From: an uncultured Roseibium sp.
GTDB lineage: Bacteria > Pseudomonadota > Alphaproteobacteria > Rhizobiales > Stappiaceae
Assembly (NCBI RefSeq): GCF_947499295.1
Contig: NZ_CANMNP010000021.1
Span: 2,092 to 66,091 of the forward strand
Direction: 5' to 3'
Length of the DNA: 64,000 nt
This document shows, piece after piece, positions 44,171-61,763 of this stretch. The notes under the pieces are model-generated. The model searched no databases, was not told where the DNA came from, and saw nothing but the letters and a program-made list of their open reading frames with translations. Made by a program: the position numbers and the translations under genes. Numbering within the stretch: the stretch's first letter is position 1; each line of letters begins with the position of its first letter.

Positions 44171-45711
44171 CAGTGATGCCCCGCCATTGCATGGCCGATC
44201 GTGGCCCTGTCCGTTTCCGTCATAGGCGACTGGTATGTGACCCTGCCTTCCGACATTACCGCGACCGTGTCTGCAAGCTCCAGAATCTCGTCGAGATCCT
44301 CGGACACAAGAAGGATAGCGGCACCCTTGTTGCGCTGGTCCATGATCTGCGCCCGGATTTCCGCGACCGAGGCAAAATCGAGCCCGAAACACGGGTTGGC
44401 GACGATGAGGATATCGACCTCGTGAGACAGTTCCCGCGCCAGGATCGCCCGCTGTACGTTGCCGCCGGAGAGGTTCTCGATCGGCTCTTCGGTCGAGGGG
44501 GTCTTGACCCGGTAGGCGGCAATCAACTCTCGTGCCCGCTTGCGCATCGGCGGCGGCGAAAGCCAGCCCTTGAAAGGCGAGATCGGTGCCTTGTCGAAGG
44601 TTCGGAAGGCCATGTTTTCCGCAACGCTCATGTTTGGCACGGCCACGTTTTTCAAGGGTTCCTCGGAAAAGCCGAACACCTTGAACCGGTCCATTTGGTC
44701 CCGCTCCGGTTCATAGGGCTGCTTGTCGACGAAAATCCGTCCGTCCGTTGGCTGCCGCTGCCCGGACAGGACCTCGATCAACTCGGACTGGCCATTGCCG
44801 GAAACACCTGCGATGCCGAGGATCTCACCCGCGTGGATCTTCAGGCTGATCGCCTCAATGGCAGGCAGCTCAGAATCGTCATCCGCGAACAAACCGGCAA
44901 GCTCCAGCTTCAGGGCCTTCTCCGGCTGGTCTACCCGGGCCGCGCTTTCGCGGATCTCCGTTTCGCCGATCATCATGCGGCTCATTTCCTCGACGGAGAG
45001 ATCCTGAACCCGGCCACTGTCGACGACACGCCCGCGCCGCAGCACCGTGACATCATCGGCATAGGCCGTCACTTCCCGAAACTTGTGGGTGATCATAAGA
45101 ATGGTGAGCTCGCCCGCTTCGGTCATGCCGCGCAGGAGCCCGAGCACCTCGTCCGCCTCGTCCGGCGTCAGCACCGATGTCGGCTCGTCGAGGATCAGGA
45201 AGCGCTGATCGAGGTAGAGCTGCTTCAGAATCTCCAGCTTCTGCTTTTCGCCCGCGGAAAGGCTCGAGACCTGTACATCCAGCGGGACCTTGAAGGGTGT
45301 TGTCTCGAGAAAAGCATTGAGCGCCCTGCGTTCACTCTTCCAGTCGATCACCGCCGGGGTGTCGGCGCGGGCGATGACAAGGTTTTCCGCCGCCGTCAGG
45401 GACGGCACAAGCGTGAAATGCTGATAGACCATGCCGATCCCGCACGCATGTGCCGCGCGTGGATTGGGGATCTCGACTTCGCTGTCGTCGACCAGCATCG
45501 TGCCACTTGTCGGCTGGTAGAAGCCCATCATGCATTTGACGAGCGTGGATTTCCCGGCACCGTTCTCGCCCAAAAGCGCGTGAAAGGACCCGGGTGTGAC
45601 CCGGATCGACACGTCGTCGAGTGCGGTCAGGCTCGCAAACACCTTGGTCATGCCGAGGGTTTCAACGCCAATGGCTCGGAACTCAGGGTCCGCGAACTGT
45701 GTAACACTCAT
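44170..45711 (-). CDS. CUT2/nucleoside-type ABC ATPase (two NBDs)
   Basis: [17 protein letters not shown] and LSGGNVQR motifs. Start at ATG 45711. Confidence 0.92.
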
Positions 45712-46454
45712 TTCGGCGCTCCTCCGACGGCAAGTTCCAGTCCGGCCAGCAGCGCGTCGCTGTCGGCGACCGCACCGAAAACCCCACCCTGCATGGTCAC
45801 CATCTTCAGCGCCGCCTCGTGATTGCCTGGATCGGTCGCCGCGCAGCAATCCGACACAATCAGACATTCAAAGCCGCGGTCATTGGCCTCGCGCATGGTG
45901 GTGTGCACGCAAACATCGGTGGTGATCCCGGTCAGGATCAGGTTGTCGATGCCTCGGGTTCTGAGCAGCAGTTCCAGGTCCGTGGCGCAGAAGGAGCCCT
46001 TGCCCGGTTTGTCGATAACCGGTTCGCCGTCGGCGGGCGCAAGTTCGGGAATGATCTCCCAGCCTGGCTCGCCGCGAACCAGGATCTTGCCGCAGGGACC
46101 CGGGTCACCTATCCCCGCTCCGATCTGTTGGGACCGCCAGCGCTTGTTGGCCGGCAGATCGGCGAGATCCGGGCGGTGCCCCTCGCGGGTGTGAATGATG
46201 TGATAGCCTCTGGCACGCATGGACGCGAGCACCTTGCCGATCGGCACGATCGGCGCGCGTGTCAGGCCGATATCGTAGCCCATGCTGTCTACATAACCGC
46301 CTTTGCCGCAGAAATCGGTCTGCATGTCTATGATGATCAGCGCCGTGTTCTCCGGCCTGAGATCACCGTTATAGGGCCAGCTATAGGGAACCGAGGCGAC
46401 CTGCCCCTTGACCTCGTCCGCATCGAGCGTTTGCGCAAGGCTCATGTAAGTCAC
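45708..46454 (-). CDS. biuH: Biuret hydrolase
   Basis: [52 protein letters not shown] and MQGGVFG closely match my recollection of Rhizobium BiuH. Confidence 0.88.
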
Positions 46455-47470
46455 TCCGCCGCGTCGCTGAGGGCTTTTTCACCGAAAACCCGCACCGGCT
46501 CTTCGAAGCCGCAGGAGGTTCCGTCCGTGTGCAGGACCTCGTCTTCCCATGGCAACCGGTACCGACCCGCCGCGAGATCAGTCATGTAGGTGTAGGGACA
46601 GTCCTGCGCCCCGCCCTTCACGGCAACATAGCCGCGATGGCCAAACTGGTAGATATTGTTTTCCACGCTCCAATTGATGCGCGCCTCGCGCACGAGGTCC
46701 GGCCGGACCTCGGCGGTGATGATCTCGTTCGGCCGACCGTTGGTACCGTGGGCCAGGATTGTGCCGTCGAAATTGACGATCATGCCCTCGCCCATACTGT
46801 CGAAAGTTCCGTCAGTGCCGCACATGCAGACATTGGCAGTCACCATGAGATTGCAGAACGCGTTGGACTGGTTGGTGAATTTCCAGCTGTCACGGATCGG
46901 GGCCGTGTAGCCAGCGGTCCGGATCATGATTTCCGCGCCTTTGTAAGCGCATTCGCGGGCCATTTCCGGAAACATGCCGTCATGGCAGATGATCAGCGCC
47001 ATCCTGCAGCCGTTCGGGCCGTCGATCACCGGAATGCCCTGGTCTCCTGGCTCCCACGGCTCCACCGGCACCCATGGATGCATCTTGCGGTAATAGAGCT
47101 TCAGCTCGCCGGTATTGTCGATGATTAGCCCGGAATTGTAGGGCATGCCGCCGGGATTCAGCTCCATGATGGAGAAGCAGCCCCAGATGTCGTTGTCGAC
47201 ACAGGCCTGCTTGAAGGCGGCAACCTCCGGCCCGTCGAGCGAGCACATGATGTCCGGGTTGGTGTCCATTGACAGGCCGTGCAGGGCGTATTCAGGAAAG
47301 ACGACCATATCCATGCTCGGCATGTTGCGCCGCGCCTTGGCCACCATGTCGACAATCACCTGCGTCTGGTTCGCAAGGTCGACCTCGCTCACCACCGTCG
47401 GCAGCTGCAGCTGCACCATGCCCAGGACCACGCCGTTCGGGGCTTTATTCAGTCCACCAAGTCCGCTCAT
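46451..47470 (-). CDS. Formamidase (nitrilase superfamily, AmiF-like)
   Basis: E-K-C triad: [20 protein letters not shown] and IICHDG. Confidence 0.82.
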
Positions 47471-47481
47471 GTCGTGGCTCC

Positions 47482-48405
47482 TTATTTGGTGATCGAGAGT
47501 TCGCCCGGCGCACCCTTAAGGGACCGCCTCGGTGAGGAGCTCGCAATCATGATCAAGAGGGTGAGGATGTAGGGCGCCGCATTGAAGAAGTGATAGCCGC
47601 GCGAGATGCCGATGGACTGCAGCGCTGGTCCGAGCGCCCCTGCCGCGCCGAAGAGCAGCGCCGCCCAGAAGCAGGCGATCGGGTTCCACCTGGCAAAGAT
47701 CACCAACGCAACTGCCATCAGGCCCTGACCCGACGACAGACCTTCCGTCCAGCTGCCCGGATAGTAGAGCGACAGGAAGGAACCGCCGATGCCGGCGAAA
47801 AACCCGCCCGCCATGGTCGACAGCAACCGGACCTTGTCGACATTGATGCCGAGCGCGAGGGCTGCCGGTGCACTGTCACCGGTGGTGCGGATGGTCAGGC
47901 CGTACCGGGTGTTCTTGAGCGCCCACCAAAGGAACACGGCAAGCGCGATGCCAAGCAGGAACAGCGGATTGATTTCCAGTGCCTGGCGTACGCCCGGATG
48001 TTCGCTCCAGGTGCCGAAGGAGATCGACGGCAAGCGCGGTGCGGATGGCTGGATATAGGCCTTGCCGAAAAAGAAGGCGAGGCCCGTGCCGAACAGCATC
48101 AGGGCGATGCCGATGGCAATGTCGTTGACCTTCGGCAGCTTGCACAGATAGCCGTGCAGTGCCCCGAAGCCCGAGCCGCAGATGCCGGCGACGAGCACGC
48201 CCAGCCAGGGTAAGCCCGTGTGATAAGAAATCGCGTAACCGGACATGGCACCGAAGACGAGTGTTCCCTCGAGACCCAGATTGATGCGGCCGGATTTCTC
48301 CGTCAGCATTTCACCCAGACTGACGAACAGGAACGGGGTCGAAACCCGGATGGCTCCGGCAAACATCGCCAGAAGCACGGTCATGAGACCTGCGTCGCCG
48401 CTCAC
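47482..48405 (-). CDS. ABC permease (nucleoside/BMP type)
   Basis: GEMLTEKSGRINLGLEG and GQGLMAVALVIFARWNP motifs. Confidence 0.9.
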   Translation of the reverse strand: MSGDAGLMTVLLAMFAGAIRVSTPFLFVSLGEMLTEKSGRINLGLEGTLVFGAMSGYAISYHTGLPWLGVLVAGICGSGFGALHGYLCKLPKVNDIAIGIALMLFGTGLAFFFGKAYIQPSAPRLPSISFGTWSEHPGVRQALEINPLFLLGIALAVFLWWALKNTRYGLTIRTTGDSAPAALALGINVDKVRLLSTMAGGFFAGIGGSFLSLYYPGSWTEGLSSGQGLMAVALVIFARWNPIACFWAALLFGAAGALGPALQSIGISRGYHFFNAAPYILTLLIMIASSSPRRSLKGAPGELSITK

Positions 48406-49517
48406 AGCACCCCTCCTTTAGACCTGAAGATGGCAAAGCGTCCGTAGAAGGTTTCGGACACCAGGATGACCAGAAACAGCAGCCCCTGCAGGACCAGCAC
48501 CGTTGCATCCGGCAGGTCCATACGCCGTTGGATCAACCCACCCGAAGCGGCGATGCCTCCGAGGAAGATGGCCACGGGTATGATCACCAGTGGATTGTGG
48601 CGTGCGAGAAACGAAACAAGGATCCCGGTAAAGCCGTAGCCCGCGATCAGCGAGGCATTGGCCTTACCGTGTATGGCCGCCACCTCGAAGAATCCGGCAA
48701 GCCCCGCGCAGGCCCCCGCGATTGCGCAGGACACCACGACCAGCCGACCAACAGGCAGACCCTGCGCCTGGGCGGCCCTGAGATTGCCGCCGGCGATCTG
48801 AGCGGCAAAGCCGAAGGTGGTCCGGTTCATCAGCAGATAGAGCAGCCCGCACAGGACAACGCCGGTCAGCAGTCCCCAGTGCACGTCCGTGCCGGGGATT
48901 GCGCCGATCATGTTGTCCGAGCCGATCGGCCGTGTTGACGGCTTGTTCGGATCGGAGGGATCGCGCAGGGCGCCTTCGACGAAGAAATTCAGGATCGAGA
49001 CGGCAATGTAGAACATCAGCAACGAGGCGATAGTCTCGTTGACACCCCGGTAGTGGCGCAGCGCACCGACGCAGCCGATCCAGAGGCCACCCGCCAGCAT
49101 GGCGGCGATCACCATGACACCGAGCAGCAGGAAGCCGGGCGCCCAGTCGACCATGGGAATGGCGATCGCAGCTGCAGCGAAACCGCCGAGCACCAGCGCG
49201 CCCTCGCCGCCGATGATGACAAGCCCGAGCCGCGCCGGAACGGCAACGCACAGCGCCGTAAAAATGAACGGCGCGGAGCGCACCAGTGTATTCTGCCAGG
49301 AAAAACTCGTGCCGAAGCCGCCGCGCCAGACCAGCGAGAAGAAGTCCGCTGGAGATTTGCCGAGTGTGAGCAGGAAAATGGAGAAAAGGATGCCAGAAAA
49401 GACCAGCGCCAGAAGGGGAATTACCACATATTCCGCCGAGCGCCGAAACCTATCCAGAAGATCGGCCGCGAAGCTGGATTGAACGGCAATCCCGGGTGTT
49501 TCCGTGGTATCTGCCAT
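48402..49517 (-). CDS. ABC permease (nucleoside/BMP type)
   Basis: IGGEGAL, GVNETIASLL and GYGFTGILVSFLAR motifs. Start at ATG 49517. Confidence 0.9.
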   Translation of the reverse strand: MADTTETPGIAVQSSFAADLLDRFRRSAEYVVIPLLALVFSGILFSIFLLTLGKSPADFFSLVWRGGFGTSFSWQNTLVRSAPFIFTALCVAVPARLGLVIIGGEGALVLGGFAAAAIAIPMVDWAPGFLLLGVMVIAAMLAGGLWIGCVGALRHYRGVNETIASLLMFYIAVSILNFFVEGALRDPSDPNKPSTRPIGSDNMIGAIPGTDVHWGLLTGVVLCGLLYLLMNRTTFGFAAQIAGGNLRAAQAQGLPVGRLVVVSCAIAGACAGLAGFFEVAAIHGKANASLIAGYGFTGILVSFLARHNPLVIIPVAIFLGGIAASGGLIQRRMDLPDATVLVLQGLLFLVILVSETFYGRFAIFRSKGGVL

Positions 49518-49635
49518 ACCTTCTCCCTGAAGATTGGGCTGCTGCCGCACCATTCGTCGACAGACGCACCGAATTCCTGGCCACACCGGAGGCCCGTTTT
49601 CCAACGGGCTCGTCCAATGTGGCGGTTTTCTTCGA

Positions 49636-50748
49636 TCAGGTGATCGAGCCGATCACGCCTTCGATCAGGTAGTCGGTCTGGTCGAGGGAGGGTTCGTAAT
49701 TTTCGAAGCTGGCGCCTGCAGCCAATAGCGACGAACCGTCCTGTTTGTTGATCGGGCCGACAAAGATCGACTTACCGGCCTTGACGTCCGCGCGGGCCGC
49801 GTCAGCGGCCGCGATTGCGGCTTCCGTCGCGCCAGCGCCGTAAGGCGTGGAGCGCACGAAATCGACATCGAACCCGCCGCCGGTGAAGTTCGGCAACGGC
49901 TCGCCCTCGGCCAGATCTGTGGCGAACATCTTGTAAATGGTCTCCCACTTGTATTCCGCGCCGGTGATAAAGCCATTCGGTGCCAGAGGTGACTGGGAGG
50001 CATTGTGGCCACAGCACTTGATGCCGCGGGACTCGGCAGTTTCGATCACCACCTTCGGTCCGTCGACATGACAGGTGAGCACATCGCAACCGGCATCGAC
50101 CAGGGCGTTAGCGGCCTCGGCTTCGCGAACCGGCATCGACCATTCACCGGTGAAGATCACCTGGACCGTGGCTTCCGGATTGACCTTGCGTGCGCCCAAA
50201 AGGAAGGAATTGATGTTGCGCAGGACTGTGCCGATCGGTTTGGCTGCGACAAAGCCGAGCTTGTTGCTTGTCGTCGACAGGCCAGCAGCAACACCGTCTA
50301 CATAATGCGCCTGGTCGAGATATCCGAAATAGCTGCCGGCATTCTTCGGGTCGGCCTCGGTCCAGAGCGGTGCAGCGTGGCGGAATTCGACGTCGGTATA
50401 TTTCGCCGCCAGATCCAGCACGAACGGTTTGTAGTAGCCGAAGGAGGTCGCGAAGATCAGCTTGGCGCCGTCCAGGTTAATCATGGATTCCATGGATTTC
50501 TGAACCGCGATCGTTTCCGGCACGTTTTCCTCTTCCACCACCGTTACGCCCGGCACGTCCTTCAGGGCGGTGGCGGCGACGGCATGAGCCTGGTTCCAAC
50601 CGAAGTCGTCACGCGGACCGACATAGACAATGCCGACAGTCAGCTCTGACGCTTGCGCCAGCCGCGGCAACCCGGCCGAGGACAACGCGGCAAGGCCCGC
50701 TGCGGATGATTTCAGGATGGTTCGGCGAGAGAGTTCGAATTTAGACAT
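49636..50748 (-). CDS. BMP-family ABC substrate-binding protein (Tat signal)
   Basis: SRRTILK twin-arginine signal; YVGPRDDFGWNQAH and IFATSFGY motifs. Confidence 0.9.
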   Translation of the reverse strand: MSKFELSRRTILKSSAAGLAALSSAGLPRLAQASELTVGIVYVGPRDDFGWNQAHAVAATALKDVPGVTVVEEENVPETIAVQKSMESMINLDGAKLIFATSFGYYKPFVLDLAAKYTDVEFRHAAPLWTEADPKNAGSYFGYLDQAHYVDGVAAGLSTTSNKLGFVAAKPIGTVLRNINSFLLGARKVNPEATVQVIFTGEWSMPVREAEAANALVDAGCDVLTCHVDGPKVVIETAESRGIKCCGHNASQSPLAPNGFITGAEYKWETIYKMFATDLAEGEPLPNFTGGGFDVDFVRSTPYGAGATEAAIAAADAARADVKAGKSIFVGPINKQDGSSLLAAGASFENYEPSLDQTDYLIEGVIGSIT

Positions 50749-50999: not shown

Positions 51000-51983
51000 T
51001 TATTCAATTTGGACATGACCCGTGGCCGCCTTCACCGGCTCATAGCTCGCGTCGAGTTTGGATTTCAGGTAATCGGCACCCGAGATCGGGTCATATTTCG
51101 CTTCATCGCCCGGTGCTACGCAGCTGGGCAGACAGGCCACGTCCGCATCCGGATTGGGGTCCAGAAAGAACGCGATCGAGTAACGCTCAAGACCACTTGC
51201 ATTGACCACCCGGTGAGGCGTCGACACATAGACATCGTTTGTCCAGCGCATCAGGCAGTCGCCGATGTTGCAGACAAAGGCACCTTCCAGCGTGGGCGCC
51301 TTGAGCCAGACGCCGTCCCGCCGTCGCACTTCCAGACCGCCGACAGCATCGGGTAGCAATATTGTAATGTTGCCGTAATCCGTGTGGGTTCCCGCGCCGA
51401 TCTGCCCCTTTTCCGCGCCAGCGTGCTGCGGCGGGTAATGCAGCAGCCGAAGCGTTGCCATCGGCGCATCGAGCTTGTCTTCGAAGAAGTCCGGATGCGC
51501 TCCGAGATCCGCTGCGACCGCCCTGTGCATCTGCTGCCCCAACATCCAGACGGCGTTGAAATAGGCCAACACGACCTCCTTCCAACCGGGCAGGTCGGGC
51601 CAGAGATTGACAGCCCGGAAGGGTTCCCCGGCAAGGATCCGCGGATCGTCCTCAGCAAGGTCGAGCCCGATATTAAACGCTTCCTTCAGGTCGGACGGTT
51701 TCGTCGGATCAAGATTTTCTCCCTTCATCGGCACATAGCCACGATTGGTTTTGAAGAAATCCTTCGTCAGCGCCATCTTGGCATCCAGCGGCTGCGTAAA
51801 GAGCTTATGTGCCGCCGCGAAGACCTCCCCGATCAGGACCTGATCGACCCCGTGGTTCTTCACATAGAAAAACCCGGTTTCGCGGGCCGCGCAGCCGATC
51901 TCCGCAGCGACGGTCTCAAGACCACCCGGCGCGCCGGACACCAGCGGCTTTAGATCGATGATAGGAAGATCCAGGTCAGTCAT
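51000..51983 (-). CDS. 2-oxoglutarate/Fe(II) oxygenase (IPNS/DIOX family)
   Basis: GFFYVKNHG, LRLLHYPP, HTDYG (HxD), STPHRV and RYSIAFF (RxS) motifs. Confidence 0.9.
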   Translation of the reverse strand: MTDLDLPIIDLKPLVSGAPGGLETVAAEIGCAARETGFFYVKNHGVDQVLIGEVFAAAHKLFTQPLDAKMALTKDFFKTNRGYVPMKGENLDPTKPSDLKEAFNIGLDLAEDDPRILAGEPFRAVNLWPDLPGWKEVVLAYFNAVWMLGQQMHRAVAADLGAHPDFFEDKLDAPMATLRLLHYPPQHAGAEKGQIGAGTHTDYGNITILLPDAVGGLEVRRRDGVWLKAPTLEGAFVCNIGDCLMRWTNDVYVSTPHRVVNASGLERYSIAFFLDPNPDADVACLPSCVAPGDEAKYDPISGADYLKSKLDASYEPVKAATGHVQIE

Positions 51984-52000
51984 CCTGCGCATCCGCCTTT

Positions 52001-53824
52001 TCACTCAGCCGCCGCAACGGGCTGCTGCGCCGTCACCGACGCAATGAATTTCCGCCAGCTGCCGAGATGGGAAATGTTCTCCGCGCGCTCAACCCCGGCG
52101 GCCTCGCAGATGAAGCCGGTCACACTGGTACTGTCGGAGAGGTCCACCGTACCCAGGCCGAGCGGCGCCGGAATACCGGCCAGGAACCCGCCCACTTCGG
52201 TGGCGGGCAGCGCCCAGACTTCCAACTCGATCGCGGCACCTGAGCCCGCAGGTCCACGCACGAGACCGGGCCGTTTCGGCGGACCGCCCGCAAGCGCAAA
52301 AAGTGAATAGGCATCGCTGGTCTCGGCAGACTTCAGAAAGCGCCCGCCGCGCCCAGTCAATTCGCCGTTCAGCGCCATACCGGACATGTGTGCGCCACAG
52401 ACCGCAATGGCGATCTCACTGGTATCGGGAGCGGGTTGAAGATCTGCCGGGGCGGGCAGTGCCCAGCCTGTCGCACCAAGCGTGTGCGGCGCCATCTGTT
52501 CCAGCCGGCTGCCGACCGCAGCCAGGAAACCGTCGCGGCCCGCGGACGCCAACAGGGTCACGTTGCCCGGCCGTCCGTCCGAACGCGGTTTCACCGGCAC
52601 AGCGAGGCCACACATGTCCAGAAGGTTGACGAAATTGGTGTAGGTGCCGTTTCGCGAATTCGGACCGACCGGGTCGGCTTCGAGATCGGCCACGCTGTAG
52701 AAGGTCGGCATGGTCGGTACGCACAGAAGATCCAATTCAGACAGGACCGGCTCCGTTTTCCGGGCAAGCTCCTTCAGCCGGTAGAACCCCCGGAACGCAT
52801 CCGTCGCACTCAGGTCCAGCGCAGCCCCGACGATTTTGCGGGTCACCGGGTGGACTGCCTCCAGATTCTCGTTCATCAGTTCTTCGATGACCGTATGCCG
52901 CTCGGCGACCCAGGCCCCCTCGTAAAGCATGTGTGCGACATCGTAGAAGGGCGTGAAATCGACCTCGACGATCTCTGCCCCTTCCGCCCTCAGCAGTGCG
53001 ACCGTGTCGCGGAAGGACTGTTCCTGGACGGCATCTCCGCAGAACTCGATTGATCCCGCATCCGGTATGCCGATCCGCAGGCTGGGCGGCACCGGTGACA
53101 GGTCCGGAGCGGCGATCTTTCTGGAATAGGCATCGGCTTCGTCGTATCCGGCGGCAGCCTGATATGCGGTGTAGGCATCCTCCACCGTGAGGGCGAAAAT
53201 CGAAATCGTGTCGAGTGTGCGGCAGGCCGGTACAACACCGGATGCGGAGAGAGCGCCGAGCGTCGGCTTCAGGCCGACGATGTTGTTGAGCGCCGCCGGT
53301 ACCCGGCCGGAGCCGGCCGTATCCGTTCCGAGCGAGAAACTGACGATGCCATGGCCGACCGCAACGGCGGACCCGGAAGAGGAGCCACCCGGAACGATAG
53401 CCGGGTCTACGGAATTTTTTGGCGGCTGGTAGGGAGATCGCACGCCGACCAGCCCGGTCGCGAACTGGTCGAGATTCGTCTTGCCGATCAGAAGTGCGCC
53501 CGCCTGGCGCAGGTTCCTGACGACAAAGGCATCTTCCCCGGCCTGATACTCGTAGGCTGGACAGGCGGCCGTGGTCGGTTTGCCACCCGCGTCGATATTG
53601 TCCTTGATGACAAAGGGAATACCCCAGAGCGGTTTCGTGGCGTTGAACGCTCCGAGTTCGGCCGCCTGCTCAAGCACTTCCTGCTTGTCGAGGAGATAGA
53701 TGAAAATGCCCGGATCGCCGATGGTCTCGATCCGCCTGTAGACTTCCTCGACAATATCCGCAGGGCTTGCTCCGCCAGAATAGGCGGTCTTCAGGGATGA
53801 AAGCGTAAAGGGAAGATCGAACAT
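52001..53824 (-). CDS. atzF: Allophanate hydrolase
   Basis: KDNID, GKTNLDQFATGL, GGSSSGS, GTDTAGSGRVP and the C-terminal VCGAHMSG domain. GAGGAC RBS before ATG 53824. Confidence 0.95.
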   Translation of the reverse strand: MFDLPFTLSSLKTAYSGGASPADIVEEVYRRIETIGDPGIFIYLLDKQEVLEQAAELGAFNATKPLWGIPFVIKDNIDAGGKPTTAACPAYEYQAGEDAFVVRNLRQAGALLIGKTNLDQFATGLVGVRSPYQPPKNSVDPAIVPGGSSSGSAVAVGHGIVSFSLGTDTAGSGRVPAALNNIVGLKPTLGALSASGVVPACRTLDTISIFALTVEDAYTAYQAAAGYDEADAYSRKIAAPDLSPVPPSLRIGIPDAGSIEFCGDAVQEQSFRDTVALLRAEGAEIVEVDFTPFYDVAHMLYEGAWVAERHTVIEELMNENLEAVHPVTRKIVGAALDLSATDAFRGFYRLKELARKTEPVLSELDLLCVPTMPTFYSVADLEADPVGPNSRNGTYTNFVNLLDMCGLAVPVKPRSDGRPGNVTLLASAGRDGFLAAVGSRLEQMAPHTLGATGWALPAPADLQPAPDTSEIAIAVCGAHMSGMALNGELTGRGGRFLKSAETSDAYSLFALAGGPPKRPGLVRGPAGSGAAIELEVWALPATEVGGFLAGIPAPLGLGTVDLSDSTSVTGFICEAAGVERAENISHLGSWRKFIASVTAQQPVAAAE

Positions 53825-53848
53825 TTTTGTCCTCAATGTCTCTTGTTC

Positions 53849-55501
53849 TCATTCGGCGGCGGAACTGGCCGGCTCCGCCAGGACAGGCGGGGCGGGCGCA
53901 GCGGCCAGCAATTCCTGTGTATAGGGATGGGCGGGCATCTCCATAAGCTTGTCGGCAGGTCCCTCCTCGACGATCTCGCCGTCCCGCATGACGATGACAT
54001 GGTCACAGAGCAGGCGCACGACATGCAGGTCGTGGCTGACAAAGAGGTAGCTGATACCGAGCCTTGCCCTAAGGTCGACCAACAGGTTGAGCACGATCGC
54101 CTGGATGGAGACGTCCAATGCTGCGGTCGGTTCATCGAGAATGAGAAAATCAGGATCGACCGCGATCGCTCGCGCAATGCCGACACGCGCTTTCTGCCCA
54201 CCTGACAGCTGGTGCGGGAACCGGTCGAGAAGTGGGCGCGGTAGGCCGACCAGGTCCGCCAGCTCCTCGATTCGAGCCCGGCGATGCGTGCCGGACAGCC
54301 CTGTCAGGCGCGCCAAAGGTTCGCCGATGGAATGGCGCGCCGTGTGCCGTGGATTGAAGCTGTCGGTGGCGTCCTGAAACACCATCTGGATCCTTGATCG
54401 GCGGGTATCACGAGCGAACGCCTTTGCCGGCGTTTTCGCAAGGTCCTCACCGTTGAAGAGAATTTCGCCACTGGTCGGGTCCGCGAGCCGCACGAGGATG
54501 GACGAGGTCGTCGATTTGCCGCATCCGCTTTCGCCAACGAGACCAACGCTCTGGCCCTTCTTCACGGTGAAGGAAATGCCCTTGACCGCATGCACGGGAC
54601 CGGACTTGCCCTGGTAGGTTTTCACGAGGTCCCGGACATCAAGAAGCGGTGCCTCAGAGGGCGTGAGAACCGGAGCCGGCGAACGCAAGTCCACAGGCAA
54701 CAACGAGCGCACGGAAGCTCCCGCCCGCGGCGTAGCATCCACCAGCTTGCGGGTATAGGCATGCCGGGGTGCCGCGAACAAACGCTCGGCATCGCCTTCC
54801 TCGACGACCTCGCCGTCCTTCATCACCGCAATCCGGCCGCAATACTGCGCGGCAAGGCCGAGATCATGCGTGATCACCATGGCGCTCATACCACGCTCGG
54901 TAATCAGCTCGGCAATCAGGTCCATCACCGCCTTCTGGGTGGTAATGTCGAGGCCGGTGGTCGGCTCGTCGGCAATCAGCAGCTTGGGATCACAAGCGAG
55001 CGCAAGCGCGATGACTATGCGCTGGCACATGCCGCCGGAAAGTTCGAACGGGTAAGCATTGTAGCGTGCTTCTGCGTCCCGGATCCGGACCGCCTCCAGC
55101 GCCTTGATCGCCTCGGACCGCGCATTTGATCGCGTGGCTTTGGCATGCCGGCGCAGCACATCCTCGATCTGGTGCCCGACTTTGCGGATCGGATTAAGGG
55201 CCGCACGCGGATTCTGGAAGATCATCGAGATTTCCCGGCCACGCAGGTCTCGCATCGTGCTTTCCCTGACGGTTCGCAAATCGATGCCGCCGTAGGTCAA
55301 CGCGCCGCCGGTGATGCGGCCGTTGCTTTCCAGAAGCCGCATCAGCGCATAGGAGGTGACCGACTTCCCGGATCCGGATTCACCGACAATGCCGAGCACT
55401 TCGCCCTTGGCAACCTCGAGCGACACACCTCGCACCGCATCGACGTCACCGCGCCGGGTCTTGAAAGAAACTTTCAGGTCCTTGATCGACAGAAGGCTCA
55501 T
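53849..55501 (-). CDS. Dpp/Opp-type ABC ATPase (fused DppD/F)
   Basis: GESGSGKS/LSGGMCQR and GESGCGKS/LSGGQKAR motifs. Start at ATG 55501. Confidence 0.92.
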   Translation of the reverse strand: MSLLSIKDLKVSFKTRRGDVDAVRGVSLEVAKGEVLGIVGESGSGKSVTSYALMRLLESNGRITGGALTYGGIDLRTVRESTMRDLRGREISMIFQNPRAALNPIRKVGHQIEDVLRRHAKATRSNARSEAIKALEAVRIRDAEARYNAYPFELSGGMCQRIVIALALACDPKLLIADEPTTGLDITTQKAVMDLIAELITERGMSAMVITHDLGLAAQYCGRIAVMKDGEVVEEGDAERLFAAPRHAYTRKLVDATPRAGASVRSLLPVDLRSPAPVLTPSEAPLLDVRDLVKTYQGKSGPVHAVKGISFTVKKGQSVGLVGESGCGKSTTSSILVRLADPTSGEILFNGEDLAKTPAKAFARDTRRSRIQMVFQDATDSFNPRHTARHSIGEPLARLTGLSGTHRRARIEELADLVGLPRPLLDRFPHQLSGGQKARVGIARAIAVDPDFLILDEPTAALDVSIQAIVLNLLVDLRARLGISYLFVSHDLHVVRLLCDHVIVMRDGEIVEEGPADKLMEMPAHPYTQELLAAAPAPPVLAEPASSAAE

Positions 55502-56373
55502 GAGCGCTGCCGGGGGTCGACAATGTCGCGCAGCCCGTCTCCCAGGAGGTTGAAGGTAAAAACGGCGAACATCAGCGCAAATCCGGGAAAGATCGCCAGC
55601 CACCATTCGCCGGACACAATGAAGTTCGCACCTTCCGCGACCATGATGCCCCATTCCGCCGTGGGCGGCCGGACGCCGAGACCGATGAAGCTCAGCCCGG
55701 CGGCATTAAGGATCGCCCAGCCGAGATTGAGCGAGACCTGCACCATCATCGGTGGCAGCGCGTTCGGGAAAATGTGCAGCGCCAGCACCCGAACATCGGA
55801 ATTGCCGGCCAGCTTGGCCGCCTGCGCGAAGCCGGAATCCCGGCGGATGTTGACTTCCGCCCTTACCAGCCTTGCATAGAAGGGAATATTGATGACCGCG
55901 GTCGCGTAGACGATGTTTTCCACCGTGTTGCCCAGTGCCGCGACGATCCCCATGGCAAGCACAAACAGCGGAAAGGCCATGATCGTGTCGAACAGGCGGT
56001 TCAGCACCGCGTCCAACCAGCCGCCCCAGTATCCGGCGATGCTTCCGAGGACCGACCCGATCAGAAACGACAAGGCGACCGCCGCCACGGAAATCGCCAG
56101 ATCCAGCCGTGCGGCGACGATGACCCGGCTGAAGACGTCCCGACCCAGGTTGTCGGTGCCGAACCAGTGGTCAAACGAAGGCGGCTGAAGCGCCAAGGCT
56201 GCGTTCGAGGCCAGTGGGTCGTAAGGCACGAGCACAGGTCCGAGGATCGCAGCCACCAGCAGAACCGCAAACATCGAAAAGGCCAACAGGGTTACCGGAT
56301 TGGACCGCAGTACATAGACCACATGCGCAAGGGCGCCGTCGGTTTTTGGAGTGGAGGCAGCCAGGTCGCTCAT
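55498..56373 (-). CDS. Dpp-type ABC permease (DppC-like)
   Basis: HWFGTDNLGRD and AGLSFIGLG motifs. Confidence 0.92.
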   Translation of the reverse strand: MSDLAASTPKTDGALAHVVYVLRSNPVTLLAFSMFAVLLVAAILGPVLVPYDPLASNAALALQPPSFDHWFGTDNLGRDVFSRVIVAARLDLAISVAAVALSFLIGSVLGSIAGYWGGWLDAVLNRLFDTIMAFPLFVLAMGIVAALGNTVENIVYATAVINIPFYARLVRAEVNIRRDSGFAQAAKLAGNSDVRVLALHIFPNALPPMMVQVSLNLGWAILNAAGLSFIGLGVRPPTAEWGIMVAEGANFIVSGEWWLAIFPGFALMFAVFTFNLLGDGLRDIVDPRQRS

Positions 56374-57401
56374 TTGGTTTCAAATCCGATACGAGGGTCG
56401 ATGAGCGTGTAGGTGAGGTCGATCACCAGGTTCAGGGCAACAAAGAGAAGTGCCATCGCCAGCACGAAGCCCTGGACGGCCGCATAGTCGGACACCACAA
56501 GCGCCTCGACCGCGTAGGACCCGATGCCTGGCCAGGCAAAGACCTTTTCCACCAGGACATTGGCGCCAAGCGTGAAGGAGAACACCATGCCAAGGGTGGT
56601 GATGACCGGCAGGAGCGCATTGCGGAACGCATAGGTGAACAACACCTTGTCCTCCGTCAGACCGGCCGCGCGCGCGGTCCGGATATAGTCTGAGGAGAGC
56701 GCGCTGAGCATCGCCGCGCGGGTCATCCGCGCCAGCGGCGCCAGGGTGAACAGCGCCAGGGTTGTTGCAGGCAGCACCAGTTGCTTGAGAGCCCCGGTCC
56801 AGGTTTCCCAGTCTCCGGCGATGGCTGCGTCGATCAGGTAAAAACCGGTGACACGGTCCGGTTCGATATAGATGAAATCGAGCCGGCCGAGCGGCGACGG
56901 TGCGATTCCAAGCAGGTAGTAGAAGACGTAAATCAGAACGACACCGGTAAAAAAGGTCGGCAGCGATACCCCCGCCGTAACGAGCACCCGGCACAGGTGA
57001 TCGACTGCCGACCCCGGGCGCGTTGCTGCCAGCACGCCAAGCGGAATGGCAATGCCGCAGGAAAGCAGCAGTGCCGTAAGTGTGAGTTCGAGCGACGCGG
57101 GTAGCCGGTTTGCGAGGTCCTGGAGTACCGGCTGGCCCGTAGAGAGCGAGTTGCCGAGATTGCCGGTGATCACGTCCCCGGCATAAATCAGGAACTGCTC
57201 CATCAAAGGCTTGTCGAGACCGAGCGCTGTCCGGATTTCGGCGATCGACTGTTCATCGGCGGCGGCGCCGGCAAAATAGACGGCCGGGTCGCCGGGAAGG
57301 GCGCGGGTCAGCAGGAAGCTGACCACGACCACTCCCAGGATCACGGGAATGGCATGTGTGATCCTTAACCCGACCGTCGACAGGCGCCCGGCCATCGGCA
57401 T
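56370..57401 (-). CDS. Dpp-type ABC permease (DppB-like)
   Basis: LPGDPA, ARMTRAAML, YIRTARAAG and VEKVFAWPGIG motifs. Confidence 0.92.
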   Translation of the reverse strand: MPMAGRLSTVGLRITHAIPVILGVVVVSFLLTRALPGDPAVYFAGAAADEQSIAEIRTALGLDKPLMEQFLIYAGDVITGNLGNSLSTGQPVLQDLANRLPASLELTLTALLLSCGIAIPLGVLAATRPGSAVDHLCRVLVTAGVSLPTFFTGVVLIYVFYYLLGIAPSPLGRLDFIYIEPDRVTGFYLIDAAIAGDWETWTGALKQLVLPATTLALFTLAPLARMTRAAMLSALSSDYIRTARAAGLTEDKVLFTYAFRNALLPVITTLGMVFSFTLGANVLVEKVFAWPGIGSYAVEALVVSDYAAVQGFVLAMALLFVALNLVIDLTYTLIDPRIGFETK

Positions 57402-59026
57402 CAGGCCTTTTTCAGTCCGCGGACATCAAGCTGGCGGTGGAACCAGTACTCGTAGCCCTCGAGGTTGCGCGTACCAACGTTCAGCGCCGGCTGCCACAGG
57501 GCAATGCGAGGCACCTCGTCCCAGGCGATCTCGATCATGCGCTTGATCTTGGGGGCATAGTCCGGATCCTCGACCGACATGTGCAACGCTTCCGACGTCA
57601 GCGTTTCGATCTCCTCGTTCCGGTAGTTGGACGAGTTGAAGAGATGGCCTTCCTGGTAAGCCCAGAAAAAGTAATAGCAGGGGTAGTTCAGCCAGCCACC
57701 GAAGGTTTCCAGATGAAGCGGCAAGCGTTTTTCGACCAATGAGGCAGTGCGCCAGTTGGCACCCGGGATTTTCTCGATGGTTGCCGTGATCCCTATCTTG
57801 GCGAGGTTTTCCTGGATCAACAGCGCCGTAGGCTCCATCCAGTCGCTCTGCGACAGGTCGATCGACAGCGGCACTTCGAAACCGTCGGCATAACCGGCTT
57901 CCGCCAGAAGTGCCTTGGCCTTGTCGAGATCCGTCGAATAGGGAAATTTCTGCGGCCAGGCGATATCTGCCGGCGCCGTCGACGGCCCACCCCACATAGG
58001 TGCGCCCCGCCCATAGGCGGCGGTCTGGAACACTTCCTCGTAAGGCACCGCCCATGCGATGGCCTGACGGACCTTCTTGTCCTTGAAGGGCTCGAATGCC
58101 AGGTTCGGGCACAGGCAGTAGATGGCATTCTCGATCGGCGTCGTGGCGACCGTGATGTCCTCGGTGCCCGACAGCTCCTTGGCGTCCTTGTTGGGCATGT
58201 TGAACGACATATTGACGTCACCGCGTTCCAGCAGCGCGCGTCGTGTGGCCGAGCTCGGCACCTCGCGCAGGACGACGCGCTGAACCGCCGGCACCGGACC
58301 GGAAGTCCAGCCGTCATTGCGCTCATAGACAAGCTGTTCGCCAGGCTTCCACGAAGCGACCTTGAAGGCGCCCGAGCCAGCTGGGGTCTTGTGCAGATAT
58401 TCCATCGCCCATGGATCGTCTTCGGTCGCGTGTTCACGCGCCACCTTGGCGTTGATGATCATCGGCACCGGCACCGCCAGATCCGGCAGGGTCAGCTTGG
58501 ACTTGCGCAGCAGATTGATCTTGAACGTGAACTCGTCGACGACCTCGAACTGCTCCGGCTTTTCAAGGGAACCTGCCTTCATCTGAACCGTCGGGAACCC
58601 GCCGACGCTGACCGCTCTATCGAAGGACCATTTCACATCCTCGGCGGTGATCGGCGAACCGTCCTGGAATTTGCCGTCGGGACGCAACTTGAAGACGATC
58701 GCCATGTCGTCATCGGTGAATTCCCAGCTTTCGGCAACTTCCGGCTCGATCACCGAGTAGTCGTAGGACAGGCTGCCGTCCTCGAGCGTCTTGGTGCCGA
58801 AACTGACCAGCCGGTCATAGACGTTGACCGCAACCTGGTAGCTCGGGCGGTTCGTGCCCGTGCGTTGAATGTCAAGGCTGTTGATGGTCTGGCCAGTAAC
58901 AGCCACCACCACATCACCTGCCGCCGCGGAGGCCGGAAGCACTTTCAGAAAAGGTAAAACGGACGCTCCGAGGACCGTTGCACCGGCACCTGTCAGGAAC
59001 CCGCGGCGTGAAGTTTTATAGGTCAT
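57401..59026 (-). CDS. Family 5 ABC substrate-binding protein (Tat signal)
   Basis: SRRGFL twin-arginine signal; YDRLV, FQDGSPITAEDVKWSF and PAGSGAFKV motifs. GAGGGG RBS before ATG 59026. Confidence 0.92.
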   Translation of the reverse strand: MTYKTSRRGFLTGAGATVLGASVLPFLKVLPASAAAGDVVVAVTGQTINSLDIQRTGTNRPSYQVAVNVYDRLVSFGTKTLEDGSLSYDYSVIEPEVAESWEFTDDDMAIVFKLRPDGKFQDGSPITAEDVKWSFDRAVSVGGFPTVQMKAGSLEKPEQFEVVDEFTFKINLLRKSKLTLPDLAVPVPMIINAKVAREHATEDDPWAMEYLHKTPAGSGAFKVASWKPGEQLVYERNDGWTSGPVPAVQRVVLREVPSSATRRALLERGDVNMSFNMPNKDAKELSGTEDITVATTPIENAIYCLCPNLAFEPFKDKKVRQAIAWAVPYEEVFQTAAYGRGAPMWGGPSTAPADIAWPQKFPYSTDLDKAKALLAEAGYADGFEVPLSIDLSQSDWMEPTALLIQENLAKIGITATIEKIPGANWRTASLVEKRLPLHLETFGGWLNYPCYYFFWAYQEGHLFNSSNYRNEEIETLTSEALHMSVEDPDYAPKIKRMIEIAWDEVPRIALWQPALNVGTRNLEGYEYWFHRQLDVRGLKKA

Positions 59027-59126
59027 AGCAATCCCCTCTTGGCAGGAAAGGGGAGAAGGCCCTTCCCACTGGCCTTCACGATGCGCGTCTTTGGTGAGTA
59101 CTTCTATTGCTATTTTTGCACCTTTG

Positions 59127-59145
59127 TGCTTCGTAATTTGCAGCA
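59127..59145. promoter_or_regulatory. LysR box TGCT-N11-AGCA
   Basis: Dyad with T-N11-A spacing in the divergent promoter, about 20 bp before the lysR ATG. Confidence 0.55.
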
Positions 59146-59165
59146 CCATACGCAAAGCATTGAAA

Positions 59166-60095
59166 ATGAAACACCTTCAAACACTCAAGCTGATCGACGC
59201 GGTGAACAAGGCAGGCTCCATTCGCAAGGCCGCCGAAGACATGAACATCACCTCGTCCGCCCTGAATAGGCGCATCCTGGGGTTCGAGGAGGAATTCGGC
59301 GCACCCATTTTCGAGCGTCTGCATGGCGGCGTACGCCTCAACCCGGCCGGCGAGCTGCTGATCCAGCACATCCGCGGCCAGATCGCCGATCTCGAGCGGG
59401 TCCGCAGCCAGGTGGCCGACCTGTCGGGCCTGCGCCGCGGCCATGTCAGCATCGCTTGTTCCCAGGCGATTCAGCCCTATTTCATGCCAGCCCAGATTGC
59501 CGCCTACCGGGCGGAACATCCCAGCGTCTCCTTCTCCGTCCACGTGCGCGACCGGGATGCGGCGGAAGAAGACCTACGCGCCTTCGAAAGCGACCTCGCC
59601 CTCGTATTCGAACCGGTTCACCTGGGAGATTTCGATGTGCTCCTCTCGGTGGAACAGCCGGTTTACGCGGTCATGGCCAGGGACCATCCCCTTGCGGCGA
59701 AGGAAAAGCTCCGCCTGCGGGACTGCCTAGGCTTTCCGCACATTGTTCCGCCGAAGCGGATCGGCATCCGCTACCTTCTCGACCTTGCCGTTGCCAGCAT
59801 GAGCCAGAAGATGGAGCCGACCGCAGAAGCCGATTCCTTTGAATTCATGCGTCACTATGTGCAGCAGGAAGCGGCCGTCGGCTTCCAGTTCCCCATCGGG
59901 CTCAACCTGTCCGGCGATGACCGCCTGACCTTCCGCCCGCTCGCCAAGGAAGACGTGCCCTATGGCAACCTGACCCTGATGCAGATGCGTGGCCGGACCC
60001 TGTCCGTCGCCTCGGCTCGATTCGCCAACCAGCTTGCGGCGGCCCTCAACAGCTTGCCGAACGAACTGATCAGGCTTGCCCGGCAATCGCGTTGA
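59166..60095 (+). CDS. LysR-family transcriptional regulator
   Basis: GSIRKAAEDMNITSSALNRRI HTH. Divergent from the dpp-atzF operon. Start at ATG 59166. Confidence 0.92.
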   Translation: MKHLQTLKLIDAVNKAGSIRKAAEDMNITSSALNRRILGFEEEFGAPIFERLHGGVRLNPAGELLIQHIRGQIADLERVRSQVADLSGLRRGHVSIACSQAIQPYFMPAQIAAYRAEHPSVSFSVHVRDRDAAEEDLRAFESDLALVFEPVHLGDFDVLLSVEQPVYAVMARDHPLAAKEKLRLRDCLGFPHIVPPKRIGIRYLLDLAVASMSQKMEPTAEADSFEFMRHYVQQEAAVGFQFPIGLNLSGDDRLTFRPLAKEDVPYGNLTLMQMRGRTLSVASARFANQLAAALNSLPNELIRLARQSR

Positions 60096-61638
60096 ACCGG
60101 TAAGACGGCGGGCTCGTCTCCGGATAGCGGGCTTCGAACCAGTCCGCCATGTATCGGACAAGGCGCGCCGTTCGGTTCCGTGCTTCCATTTCGGACACAG
60201 TGAAGGGCGCGGACAGCAAGGCGCCTATTTCCTCAAGAACCATGTCTCGGTCTATCGAGATCACCCTGCCATCGGCGACGACCTTGCAGCCGCCGACAAA
60301 GACCGTCCGCGCGGCCATCTGCCTGCTGCGCTGCAGGACCGCATCTACCAGAGGCACACTGTCATCTATGAAAGGACGGGCAATGTCGGCCCAGTCGACC
60401 AGGACAACGTCCGCCGCCTTGCCAGCGTCCAGTCGCCCGATACGCCCCTCGAAGCCCGTGCTCGCCGCGCCGTGTTCCGTCGCCATCCTGAAAACATGCC
60501 CGGCAGACGGGCGGAAGGTGTCCAACCCCGGCTCCCGGTGCAGCGCCCAGGCCAGCCGCATCTCCTGAAGCATGTCGCGGTCATCGTTGATCCCGGCCTG
60601 GTCGATGCCGAGGCAGACGGGCACACCCCTCTTCAGCATCTCGTTGACAGGCGCGATGCCGCTGGCTAGACGCAGGCCCGAACTGGCATTGTGACAGATG
60701 GTACAGCCGCAGTTGCGAACGAGGTCAAGGTCTTCCGGGTCGGTCCAGATGCCGTGGCCGAGCGTAAGGTTGCCTGTCAGACAGCCGAGATCCGCAAGAT
60801 GGCGAATGGCTGACTTGCCATAGGTCCGCCGGGCAAATTCCGCCTGCAGCCGGGTTTCCACCAAATGCATGTGGATCTTCGAACCCGTGCGTGCCGCCGT
60901 GTCGAAAATGGCACTCAGGCAGTCATCTGAGCACCAGTGCAGGTTGGCCGGTGCGAGCTGCCAGGACACCCCGTCCGGATCCGATTTTGCCCAGACAGTC
61001 TTTTGCTCCTCGAACCAGCTCATGTGGGATAAGATCGGCGCCTTGCTCGCGGCAAGCTTCGGCCGCCAGTAGGCAGCCTCATCTTCCGGTAATCCGGACA
61101 GGAACGGTTCGTCGTCTTCGTGAACGAGCTGGTTGCGGTCCCGGATCATGAAGGAGAAGGACACTCGCATACCGATGTCGCGATAGGCCCCGATCACCTT
61201 GTTTGACAGATTGGTCCAGGTGTCCGGTTCACCTGTAAGGCCGGGGTGAATATGCTGGACCGTCGTCGTACCTGATTCCAGCATCTCGATCGCCGAATAG
61301 AGCGTGTCGAGCCTGTGCCCTACATAACGCATGCCCCGGAACTGCGGCAGCCAAAGCTCCAGCGGCCCGTAGGGAACCCCGAGCTGGAGCGGCGTCAGCC
61401 CCGAATGGTGATGGCTGTTGACGAGGCCTGGAAAGGCAATTGCGTCAGGCCCACCCTCGACCGGCAGGTCCGGATGGTCGGTGCGCAGATCCTCAAAGGG
61501 TTTCACGGCGACGACAAGCCCGTCCCGGACATGGATAGCCGCGCCTTCGATCACCTCACCAGTTGAGGCATCGTCGACGCCGGTGATCGTGGCACAGGTA
61601 CGGATCAGGAATTCCCGGTCGGCCGGACAGTCACTCAT
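60070..61638 (-). CDS. Metal-dependent amidohydrolase (AtzA/TrzA/8-oxoguanine deaminase-like, COG0402)
   Basis: GLVNSHHH, IHMHLVET, LGHGIW and CLGIDQAG motifs. Start at ATG 61638. Confidence 0.85.
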   Translation of the reverse strand: MSDCPADREFLIRTCATITGVDDASTGEVIEGAAIHVRDGLVVAVKPFEDLRTDHPDLPVEGGPDAIAFPGLVNSHHHSGLTPLQLGVPYGPLELWLPQFRGMRYVGHRLDTLYSAIEMLESGTTTVQHIHPGLTGEPDTWTNLSNKVIGAYRDIGMRVSFSFMIRDRNQLVHEDDEPFLSGLPEDEAAYWRPKLAASKAPILSHMSWFEEQKTVWAKSDPDGVSWQLAPANLHWCSDDCLSAIFDTAARTGSKIHMHLVETRLQAEFARRTYGKSAIRHLADLGCLTGNLTLGHGIWTDPEDLDLVRNCGCTICHNASSGLRLASGIAPVNEMLKRGVPVCLGIDQAGINDDRDMLQEMRLAWALHREPGLDTFRPSAGHVFRMATEHGAASTGFEGRIGRLDAGKAADVVLVDWADIARPFIDDSVPLVDAVLQRSRQMAARTVFVGGCKVVADGRVISIDRDMVLEEIGALLSAPFTVSEMEARNRTARLVRYMADWFEARYPETSPPSYRFNAIAGQA

Positions 61639-61721
61639 GCCCCTTGTCCCCATGCTGTGCGGCACATTCCTTCAGCGCGCCGCAGCAGTGCTTCCCGGCT
61701 GTCCGCCTGCCTGCCCGCGAC

Positions 61722-61763
61722 CGTTCTATCGACCAGCTCCATCTGCTGCTGGTTGATAGAACG
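61722..61763. repeat. 16-bp inverted repeat (one mismatch) in the intergenic gap
   Basis: CGTTCTATCGACCAGC (61722-61737) / GCTGGTTGATAGAACG (61748-61763). Confidence 0.7.

Follow-up and report, generated by a model that had tools for sequence, protein, structure and literature searches.

A 2-oxoglutarate oxygenase gene recurrently linked to triuret/biuret hydrolase clusters in Roseibium and related bacteria, and its possible role as an accessory enzyme of ureide nitrogen scavenging

Why should a gene for an Fe(II)/2-oxoglutarate (2OG) oxygenase stand at the end of an operon encoding allophanate hydrolase, when the known biuret and cyanurate routes are, as an earlier note on this DNA rightly held, purely hydrolytic? 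The question is raised by a 64,000-nt stretch of DNA from an uncultured Roseibium sp. (contig NZ_CANMNP010000021.1; the whole stretch is called the window here). The oxygenase gene lies there between an upstream unit, comprising a divergent LysR-type regulator gene, a Dpp-type importer and the allophanate hydrolase gene atzF, and a downstream operon encoding a Bmp-type importer, the hydrolases of biuret (BiuH) and of triuret (TrtA) and the AtzG, AtzE and AtzH proteins. Comparison of the locus among relatives showed that the conserved partner of the oxygenase is this neighbouring Bmp/BiuH/TrtA/AtzGEH operon rather than the Dpp transporter, and that the oxygenase is accessory to, and separable from, the TrtA cluster and is no constant component of it. 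We tentatively propose, at a probability of roughly 0.45, that the enzyme acts as an oxidative accessory, feeding the triuret/biuret/allophanate pathway of nitrogen scavenging.

The gene under study is the following:

51000..51983, minus strand: 327-residue Fe(II)/2OG oxygenase of the IPNS/DIOX_N subfamily (PaIPNS-like), assigned from Pfam matches, conserved residues, an AlphaFold (AF2) model and PDB matches

The open reading frame (ORF) spans 51000-52004 on the minus strand and encodes 334 residues; translation probably begins at the ATG at position 51983, which would give a protein of 327 residues. This ATG is preceded by the Shine-Dalgarno-like sequence AAAGGCGGA and lies exactly 17 nt past the stop codon of atzF (52003-52001), the distance given in the earlier note. 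The same note had described an intact HxD..H/RxS enzyme, and this was borne out by both domain matches and fold. The ORF matched PF14226 (DIOX_N, E 5e-29, residues 13-137 of the 334-residue ORF, N-terminal to the catalytic domain) and PF03171 (2OG-FeII_Oxy, E 3e-23), and the 2-His-1-carboxylate facial triad H200-x-D202...H257 is complete and invariant in 38 aligned homologues as well as in 44 locus-derived sequences. The 2OG-binding residues R267-Y-S269 (the RxS motif), Y183 and R179 align with R286, S288, Y194 and R190 of the Neurospora crassa thymine-7-hydroxylase (T7H), and neither catalytic nor 2OG-binding residues change across all 42 compared orthologues (at least 47% identity). The AF2 model (mean predicted local distance difference test score, pLDDT, 89; predicted template modelling score, pTM, 0.89) has the jelly-roll or double-stranded beta-helix fold, and Foldseek aligned it with 6JYV, 9OVH and 5C3P with probability 1.00 and TM scores of 0.81-0.85. 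Since more than 100 homologues of at least 60% identity exist, this is a real gene and no chance ORF; a protein atlas search returned only clusters of its own family. Taken together, the protein is predicted to be active as an Fe(II)/2OG-dependent enzyme.

Neighbourhoods in relatives were rebuilt by tblastn with the window proteins, unlike neighbours being detected only where a Pfam scan was made, and "not found" refers throughout to the genomes searched and the thresholds used. Within Roseibium, 13 of 19 orthologues (the window counted) retain the entire LysR-dpp-atzF-2OG-Bmp block, one stands in a LysR-atzF-2OG-Bmp arrangement without dpp, and five are located elsewhere, four of them in a GntR-2OG-DCC1 context. 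In a tree, the five cluster-less orthologues nest within the cluster-linked Roseibium clade; they are orthologues that outlived the loss of the cluster. At four loci of this kind (L023, positions 8698-10978; also L024, L026 and L027), all from Roseibium without detectable atzF, biuH or trtA, the oxygenase gene is placed between genes for a GntR/FCD regulator and a DCC1-like thiol-disulfide oxidoreductase, with glutathione peroxidase and universal stress protein genes close by.

The wider survey used 301 genomes sampled evenly across the order, with a threshold of E < 1e-95 for oxygenase homologues, and an independent scan of species-representative genomes that gave 80 loci with oxygenase relatives 53-82% identical, linkage being defined as within 10 kb of BiuH. 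An oxygenase homologue was present in 22 of the 301 genomes; TrtA/BiuH occurred in 20 of these 22 and in 71 of the 279 oxygenase-negative genomes (about 25%), a contrast to be read as a description and not as a test because the relatives are not independent. Outside Roseibium, 13 of 19 homologues (18 from the order sample plus one other relative) directly precede the Bmp-BiuH-TrtA operon and point the same way. At species level 41 of the 80 loci were linked, with the oxygenase gene at the head of the operon in 31, at its tail, following AtzE, AtzH or an amidohydrolase, in six and divergent in four, and these three gene orders across about nine families favour selection over inherited synteny alone. 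The association with atzF, on which the earlier note had relied, also extends beyond Roseibium: atzF is directly upstream, at 56-201 nt, in 12 of the 80 loci (Roseibium, Propylenella, a Beijerinckiaceae metagenome-assembled genome (MAG), a Rhizobiaceae MAG and Mesorhizobium). That note had not connected the gene with the Bmp/BiuH/TrtA/AtzGEH operon, its conserved partner.

The upstream unit, in which the genes overlap or are 1-17 nt apart and the oxygenase gene comes last, consists of the following features:

52001..53836, minus strand: allophanate hydrolase AtzF, 611 residues, with amidase and AH_C domains (TIGR02713, PF01425, PF21986)
53849..59026, minus strand: Dpp/Opp-type ATP-binding cassette (ABC) importer, from Pfam and NCBIfam matches, made up of the next four genes
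53849 to about 55500, minus strand: fused double ATPase DppD/F
55498-56373, minus strand: permease DppC
56370-57401, minus strand: permease DppB
57401-59026, minus strand: Dpp binding protein of the SBP_bac_5 family
59091..60095, plus strand: AtzR-like LysR-type regulator, divergent from dppA (PF00126, PF03466)

This confirmed the position claimed for the oxygenase at the end of a tightly packed dpp-atzF unit with a divergent LysR gene. AtzF scored 758 bits against TIGR02713 (cut-off 511), with a PF01425 match and the C-terminal AH_C domain (PF21986) at E 3e-44, and it was the sole hit above the TIGR02713 cut-off in a whole-genome search. Because no second copy passes that cut-off, and because neither a urea carboxylase nor a guanidine carboxylase was found in the genome search, AtzF here serves the triuret/biuret ureide route and cannot be working for such a carboxylase. 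By its sequence the LysR regulator is AtzR-like, sharing 42.5% identity, across 95% of its length, with the LysR protein encoded on pADP-1 between atzDGEHF and a BMP importer. In Mesorhizobium, Hoeflea and a Rhizobiaceae MAG, copies at 59-63% identity adjoin atzF-2OG.

The Dpp importer, which the earlier note had taken as the partner of the oxygenase, is indeed part of the unit in the window, but it is an optional, lineage-restricted insert. It was observed in 13 of the 14 cluster-bearing Roseibium loci, the remaining one showing the divergent LysR gene next to atzF-2OG, and in one Rhizobiaceae MAG; it is absent elsewhere, and was present in seven of the 80 loci of the species-representative scan. 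The MAG in question (locus L111, OZ246966.1) has the full Roseibium-type LysR-dppABCDF-atzF-2OG-Bmp order at 59-80% protein identity. Since the arrangement thus recurs outside the family of Roseibium, either the dpp insert is old or it moved together with the module. Among PDB entries the Dpp binding protein matched the opine binder AgaA best (6HLX, E 1e-37), which gives no clue to specificity. The longest DppD/F ORF (53849-55654) overlaps dppC by 157 nt and family alignments begin near residue 52, so that the true start is probably near 55500.

Downstream of the oxygenase gene a 252-nt AT-rich spacer holds the promoter of the next operon, whose features are:

50833-50817, minus strand: sigma54-type -24/-12 promoter TTGGCAC-N5-TTGCT, read from the sequence
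43511..50748, minus strand: Bmp importer-formamidase-BiuH-TrtA segment, made up of the next seven genes
49636-50748, minus strand: Bmp-type binding protein (PDB matches 3S99, a Brucella BMP lipoprotein, and AtzT of pADP-1, 6PI5)
48402-49604, minus strand: Bmp importer permease
47482-48405, minus strand: Bmp importer permease
46451-47470, minus strand: formamidase (NF009803, score 573 against a cut-off of 406)
45708-46454, minus strand: biuret hydrolase BiuH (NF050097, score 424 against a cut-off of 370; best PDB match 6AZO, 411 bits)
44170 to about 45700, minus strand: Bmp importer ATPase
43511-44176, minus strand: triuret hydrolase TrtA (best PDB match TrtA 6XIX, 300 bits, against 214 bits for BiuH 6XJM)
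40734..43490, minus strand: AtzG-AtzE-5-FCL-like-AtzH segment, made up of the next four genes
43308-43490, minus strand: AtzG-like protein (PF13318)
41893-43311, minus strand: 1-carboxybiuret hydrolase AtzE (NF006631, score 675 against a cut-off of 461)
41120 to about 41900, minus strand: 5-formyltetrahydrofolate cyclo-ligase-family (5-FCL-like) gene (PF01812)
40734-41120, minus strand: AtzH-like protein (PF11533)

BiuH and TrtA are isochorismatase-like paralogues, and both could be assigned in the window. Judged by these family matches, the adjacent operon is the known triuret/biuret route feeding AtzF. The sigma54 motif, which separates the oxygenase gene from this operon, precedes the Bmp binding-protein gene by about 70-85 nt. 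Every Roseibium locus and several other genera keep it at an equal distance, whether the oxygenase is present or not. In other clusters a gene of the cyanuric acid hydrolase/barbiturase family (PF09663) is inserted between biuH and the Bmp ATPase gene (L033, at about 16200-17270; L040, L054, L060-L063, L092, L095 and L108); this insertion occurs with and without the oxygenase and in several genera, none of them Roseibium. Clusters devoid of the oxygenase were also checked for another enzyme at its position, where the neighbours vary (GntR, FAD oxidoreductase, HAD, MCP, FAA hydrolase) and no pattern emerged.

On the far side of the regulator a further group of genes is found, convergent to the LysR gene:

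60070..63935, minus strand: two amidohydrolase-superfamily genes and an ABC ATPase gene
60070-61665, minus strand: TRZ/ATZ-like amidohydrolase
61930-63189, minus strand: cytosine-deaminase-like amidohydrolase

Homologues of this module (51-52% identity) and a second Bmp binding protein stand beside an amidohydrolase-2OG-Bmp arrangement in Hoeflea (L131 and L150), and from this recurrence the ureide island may be larger than the two operons. An assimilatory nitrate/nitrite cluster occupies positions 26838-40520 of the window, beside the ureide genes, and includes genes for a sirohaem synthase, a molybdopterin nitrate reductase, a nitrite reductase of the NirB type, an NMT1-type ABC importer and an ANTAR response regulator. 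Viewed as a whole, the stretch resembles a nitrogen-acquisition island.

A second recurrent partner of the oxygenase bears on its possible substrate. In 19 of the 80 species-level loci an amidohydrolase-superfamily gene is directly upstream on the same strand, 12 of these being of the NF006055 type, matching "8-oxoguanine deaminase" at equivalog level (626 bits, the cut-off being 532; PDB matches 3HPA and 7WW2), and seven other Amidohydro_1 members. Genes of the NF006055 type (L036, positions 7163-8497; L028, positions 8157-9491; L089, L097-L099, L103, L104, L118, L121-L123, L131 and L150) are 36-166 nt upstream of the oxygenase gene, and in most such loci the Bmp-BiuH-TrtA operon follows. This enzyme group acts on guanine analogues at C2 and includes N2,N2-dimethylguanine hydrolases (PMC13054789); the products of this group are 2,6-dioxopurines. 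This gene order suggests that deaminase and oxygenase work as a pair on a guanine analogue. The Roseibium genome has an 8-oxoguanine-deaminase-like gene of its own (contig C1, 85544-86950), which is just 44% identical to the oxygenase-linked type and whose flanks gave no match to any cluster query protein.

Rhodobacterales homologues of the oxygenase (52-54% identity) belong to a different, conserved operon on plasmids pD4M1A of Paroceanicella (L072) and p2 of Sulfitobacter pontiacus (L074). It encodes an ABC importer of the NMT1 type, an amidohydrolase similar to cytosine deaminase, an FAD-linked oxidase, two flavodoxin-like oxidoreductases dependent on NAD(P)H, the 2OG oxygenase and a member of the creatininase family, and it looks like an undescribed heterocycle catabolic operon. 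The theme common to these partners suggests the catabolism of nitrogen-rich heterocycles.

What the active site may accommodate was examined by comparison with the nearest structures. The oxygenase is most similar to PaIPNS, an "isopenicillin N synthase family oxygenase" of Pseudomonas aeruginosa (6JYV), and to 9OVH, which were found by phmmer with E 3e-57 and 9e-69, respectively, and were also the top Foldseek matches; 9OVH is not a natural ethylene-forming enzyme (EFE) but the reconstructed ancestor Anc357, and both Anc357 and PaIPNS gave uncoupled 2OG turnover only, without hydroxylation of arginine (PMC12329707). Both belong to the same DIOX_N plus 2OG-FeII_Oxy subfamily and share identical metal and 2OG ligands with the window enzyme, but they have W and Y at the positions of T7H N87 and E122, where the window enzyme has N80 and N104. 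The nearest enzyme with a defined substrate is T7H (PDB 5C3P to 5C3S; E 2e-42, 33% identity, TM 0.83-0.85), which acts on a free planar 2,4-dioxo base, carrying out three successive oxidations of the methyl group on a uracil ring (PMC4787775). Four of its six base-binding residues are identical in the oxygenase (N87=N80, R190=R179, Y217=Y203 and F292=F273), N104 stands in place of E122 and D275 in place of N294, and all six positions are invariant in the orthologues. This is weak evidence that the pocket fits a planar dioxo ring or an acyl-ureide substrate. We therefore speak of an enzyme that might work like T7H and claim no membership of the T7H family. T7H is a fungal salvage enzyme, whereas the present gene stands among genes of bacterial ureide catabolism, with no sign of a partner iso-orotate decarboxylase.

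From these observations the following scheme may be drawn for an oxidative feeder. The oxygenase would be transcribed with atzF and the Dpp importer genes under the AtzR-like LysR regulator, and the importers would bring in a planar N-heterocycle or ureide; the resemblance of the Bmp binding protein to AtzT, a purine/triazine binder, was counted as support for a heterocycle. An acyl-ureide or planar 2,4-dioxo N-heterocycle, such as a base derived from a purine, triazine or pyrimidine, would then bind in the T7H-like pocket, this substrate being in many genomes possibly the product of the adjacent guanine-analogue deaminase, and be hydroxylated with 2OG and O2 at a C-H (or N-alkyl) position. 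The hydroxylated product might collapse or be hydrolysed to triuret, 1-carboxybiuret or biuret, which TrtA, AtzEGH, BiuH and AtzF would mineralise to NH3 and CO2. A precedent for heteroaromatic C-H hydroxylation of a purine in nitrogen catabolism is the fungal 2OG-dependent xanthine hydroxylase XanA, a member of the TauD family and not of the IPNS/DIOX_N subfamily. The idea of an oxidative entry step acting on a ring or a ureide, put forward in the earlier note, is thus consistent with the T7H-like active site and with the adjacent deaminases, but the cyanurate-type triazine version of it is disfavoured. AtzD, which would open cyanuric acid derived from a C-H triazine, was not found in the Roseibium genome by a search that detects it in 41 of the 301 genomes of the order sample, and the simple route from a C-H triazine or azauracil to cyanurate is therefore unlikely in Roseibium. 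Where the oxygenase is present, AtzD bears no consistent relation to it: some clusters include AtzD, other genomes have it away from the cluster, and in others none was found. A narrower form of the feeder, in which the oxygenase would itself be the enzymatic source of triuret or carboxybiuret by oxidising a purine-derived 2,6-dioxo base (urate or xanthine, made by the adjacent 8-oxoguanine/guanine-analogue deaminase) or an oxidised-purine product (5-azauracil, oxonate) to a ring-opened polyureide, seems improbable to us. The enzyme was also considered as a missing urate oxidase and rejected as such, since the genome already encodes urate oxidase of the PuuD type along with HIU hydrolase and OHCU decarboxylase, which leaves no urate-oxidase gap to fill; the cofactor-free uricase (PF01014) is absent.

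The lack of AtzD is one of several observations that weigh against a feeder role. A TrtA orthologue occurs in about 78 of the 301 order-sample genomes and the oxygenase is next to it in about 14-15 of these, so that about four in five are without it. Moreover, 19 of 20 sampled oxygenase-negative clusters share the same core genes, and triuret/biuret use therefore does not need the oxygenase. In the five Roseibium genomes with the gene elsewhere, atzF, biuH and trtA were not found and yet the oxygenase is intact, which argues that it has some use of its own. Furthermore, the Bmp operon has its own promoter in the window, dividing it from the oxygenase; no function is known for PaIPNS, the nearest natural structure (PMC12329707); and the T7H-like residues say little about specificity because they are partly common to the whole PaIPNS-like family. 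The same facts, that is retention in the GntR-2OG-DCC1 context, absence from most TrtA clusters, a transcription unit separate from that of the Bmp operon and a closest relative without a known substrate, are what would be expected under the main rival explanation, to which the 39 of 80 loci unlinked within 10 kb can be added. According to this, the oxygenase would have a pathway-independent function on some other small molecule useful under nitrogen limitation, and its linkage would be regulatory or positional only (AtzR-like LysR, NtrC/sigma54 context). We consider this explanation unlikely, though it deserves to be taken seriously. It is opposed by the recurrence of the linkage in three gene orders and about nine families, by the enrichment of TrtA/BiuH among oxygenase-positive genomes described above, and by the short gaps (36-235 nt) to atzF, AtzH or amidohydrolase genes, which indicate co-transcription with pathway enzymes.

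Two other reactions were weighed. The oxygenase could be an oxidative N-/C-dealkylase, or a stepwise methyl oxidase, that removes the group with release of formaldehyde or oxidises it up to a carboxyl. Its substrate would be a ureide or purine base bearing a methyl or alkyl group, for instance methylated biuret, urea or a guanine analogue, and its product an unsubstituted substrate for the hydrolases; such an activity would agree with the stepwise oxidation of a methyl group to a carboxyl by T7H (PMC4787775) and with the N2,N2-dimethylguanine hydrolases in the adjacent amidohydrolase family, which point to modified-purine catabolism (PMC13054789), while the formamidase and the 5-formyltetrahydrofolate cyclo-ligase-family gene of the cluster hint at one-carbon/formyl handling. 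Formamidase, however, did not correlate with the oxygenase, occurring in eight of the 15 clusters that have the oxygenase and in 11 of the 19 that lack it; genes for handling formaldehyde were not seen beside the oxygenase gene, and no neighbour points to a specific methylated substrate, and we give this reaction a small chance. The other reaction, hydroxylation of arginine or a guanidino compound in the manner of EFE, with release of guanidine or urea that would reach AtzF via a carboxylase, is suggested by the name of the best PDB match, 9OVH, and by the annotation of some database copies as "ethylene/succinate-forming enzyme". It appears highly improbable. Natural EFEs match the oxygenase no better than E about 1e-19, along about 200 residues; Anc357, which lacks EFE activity, and PaIPNS made only trace ethylene and no detectable pyrroline-5-carboxylate (P5C) (PMC12329707); and PaIPNS itself, the protein compared in that study rather than the window enzyme, differs from EFE at the L-Arg-binding residues (PMC12329707). 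EFE identity was rejected on these grounds and because no urea or guanidine carboxylase, the mark of a guanidine-consuming context, was found in the genome.

Bacteria of soil and sea, plant-associated bacteria and nitrifiers widely carry clusters with TrtA, BiuH, AtzF and the Bmp importer, and a 2OG oxygenase that repeatedly joins them, often behind a guanine-analogue deaminase, is a clonable candidate for an enzymatic ureide-making step. The linkage would also offer a first physiological handle on the PaIPNS-like subfamily, which is structurally characterised and was used as the outgroup for EFE evolution. If the enzyme did oxidise purines, it would provide a second, oxidative route of purine-nitrogen mineralisation via triuret, biuret and allophanate, and a first function for the orphan PaIPNS-like oxygenase family; if it proved unrelated to the pathway, the "ethylene-forming enzyme" annotation of some copies would still be corrected.

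The triuret/biuret route through TrtA, BiuH and AtzF has been described for Herbaspirillum sp. BH-1 and Rhizobium leguminosarum 3841 (PMC7948467), and was recently noted in nitrifiers with a bmpA-nupABC importer (PMC12625717). The window has orthologues of TrtA, BiuH, AtzF, AtzH/TrtB and the Bmp importer and is a cluster of the same kind as those of Herbaspirillum and Rhizobium, whose pathway is purely hydrolytic, whereas the present cluster, like roughly one in five of those in Hyphomicrobiales, has a 2OG oxygenase attached. No oxygenase is mentioned in the searchable papers on this route, the text of the TrtA paper (PMC7948467) included, and the searchable literature gave nothing relevant joining triuret with 2-oxoglutarate, or biuret with the isopenicillin N synthase family; the oxygenase superfamily and the hydrolytic cluster are each known, and it is their recurrent association that appears to be undescribed. 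With the atzR-atzDGEHF and atzT genes of plasmid pADP-1 (Pseudomonas sp. ADP) the locus shares a LysR regulator, a BMP-type importer, AtzG, AtzE, AtzH and AtzF. The pADP-1 pathway begins with the ring-opening cyanuric acid hydrolase AtzD, whereas the Roseibium genome, with no detectable AtzD, has TrtA, BiuH and the oxygenase instead.

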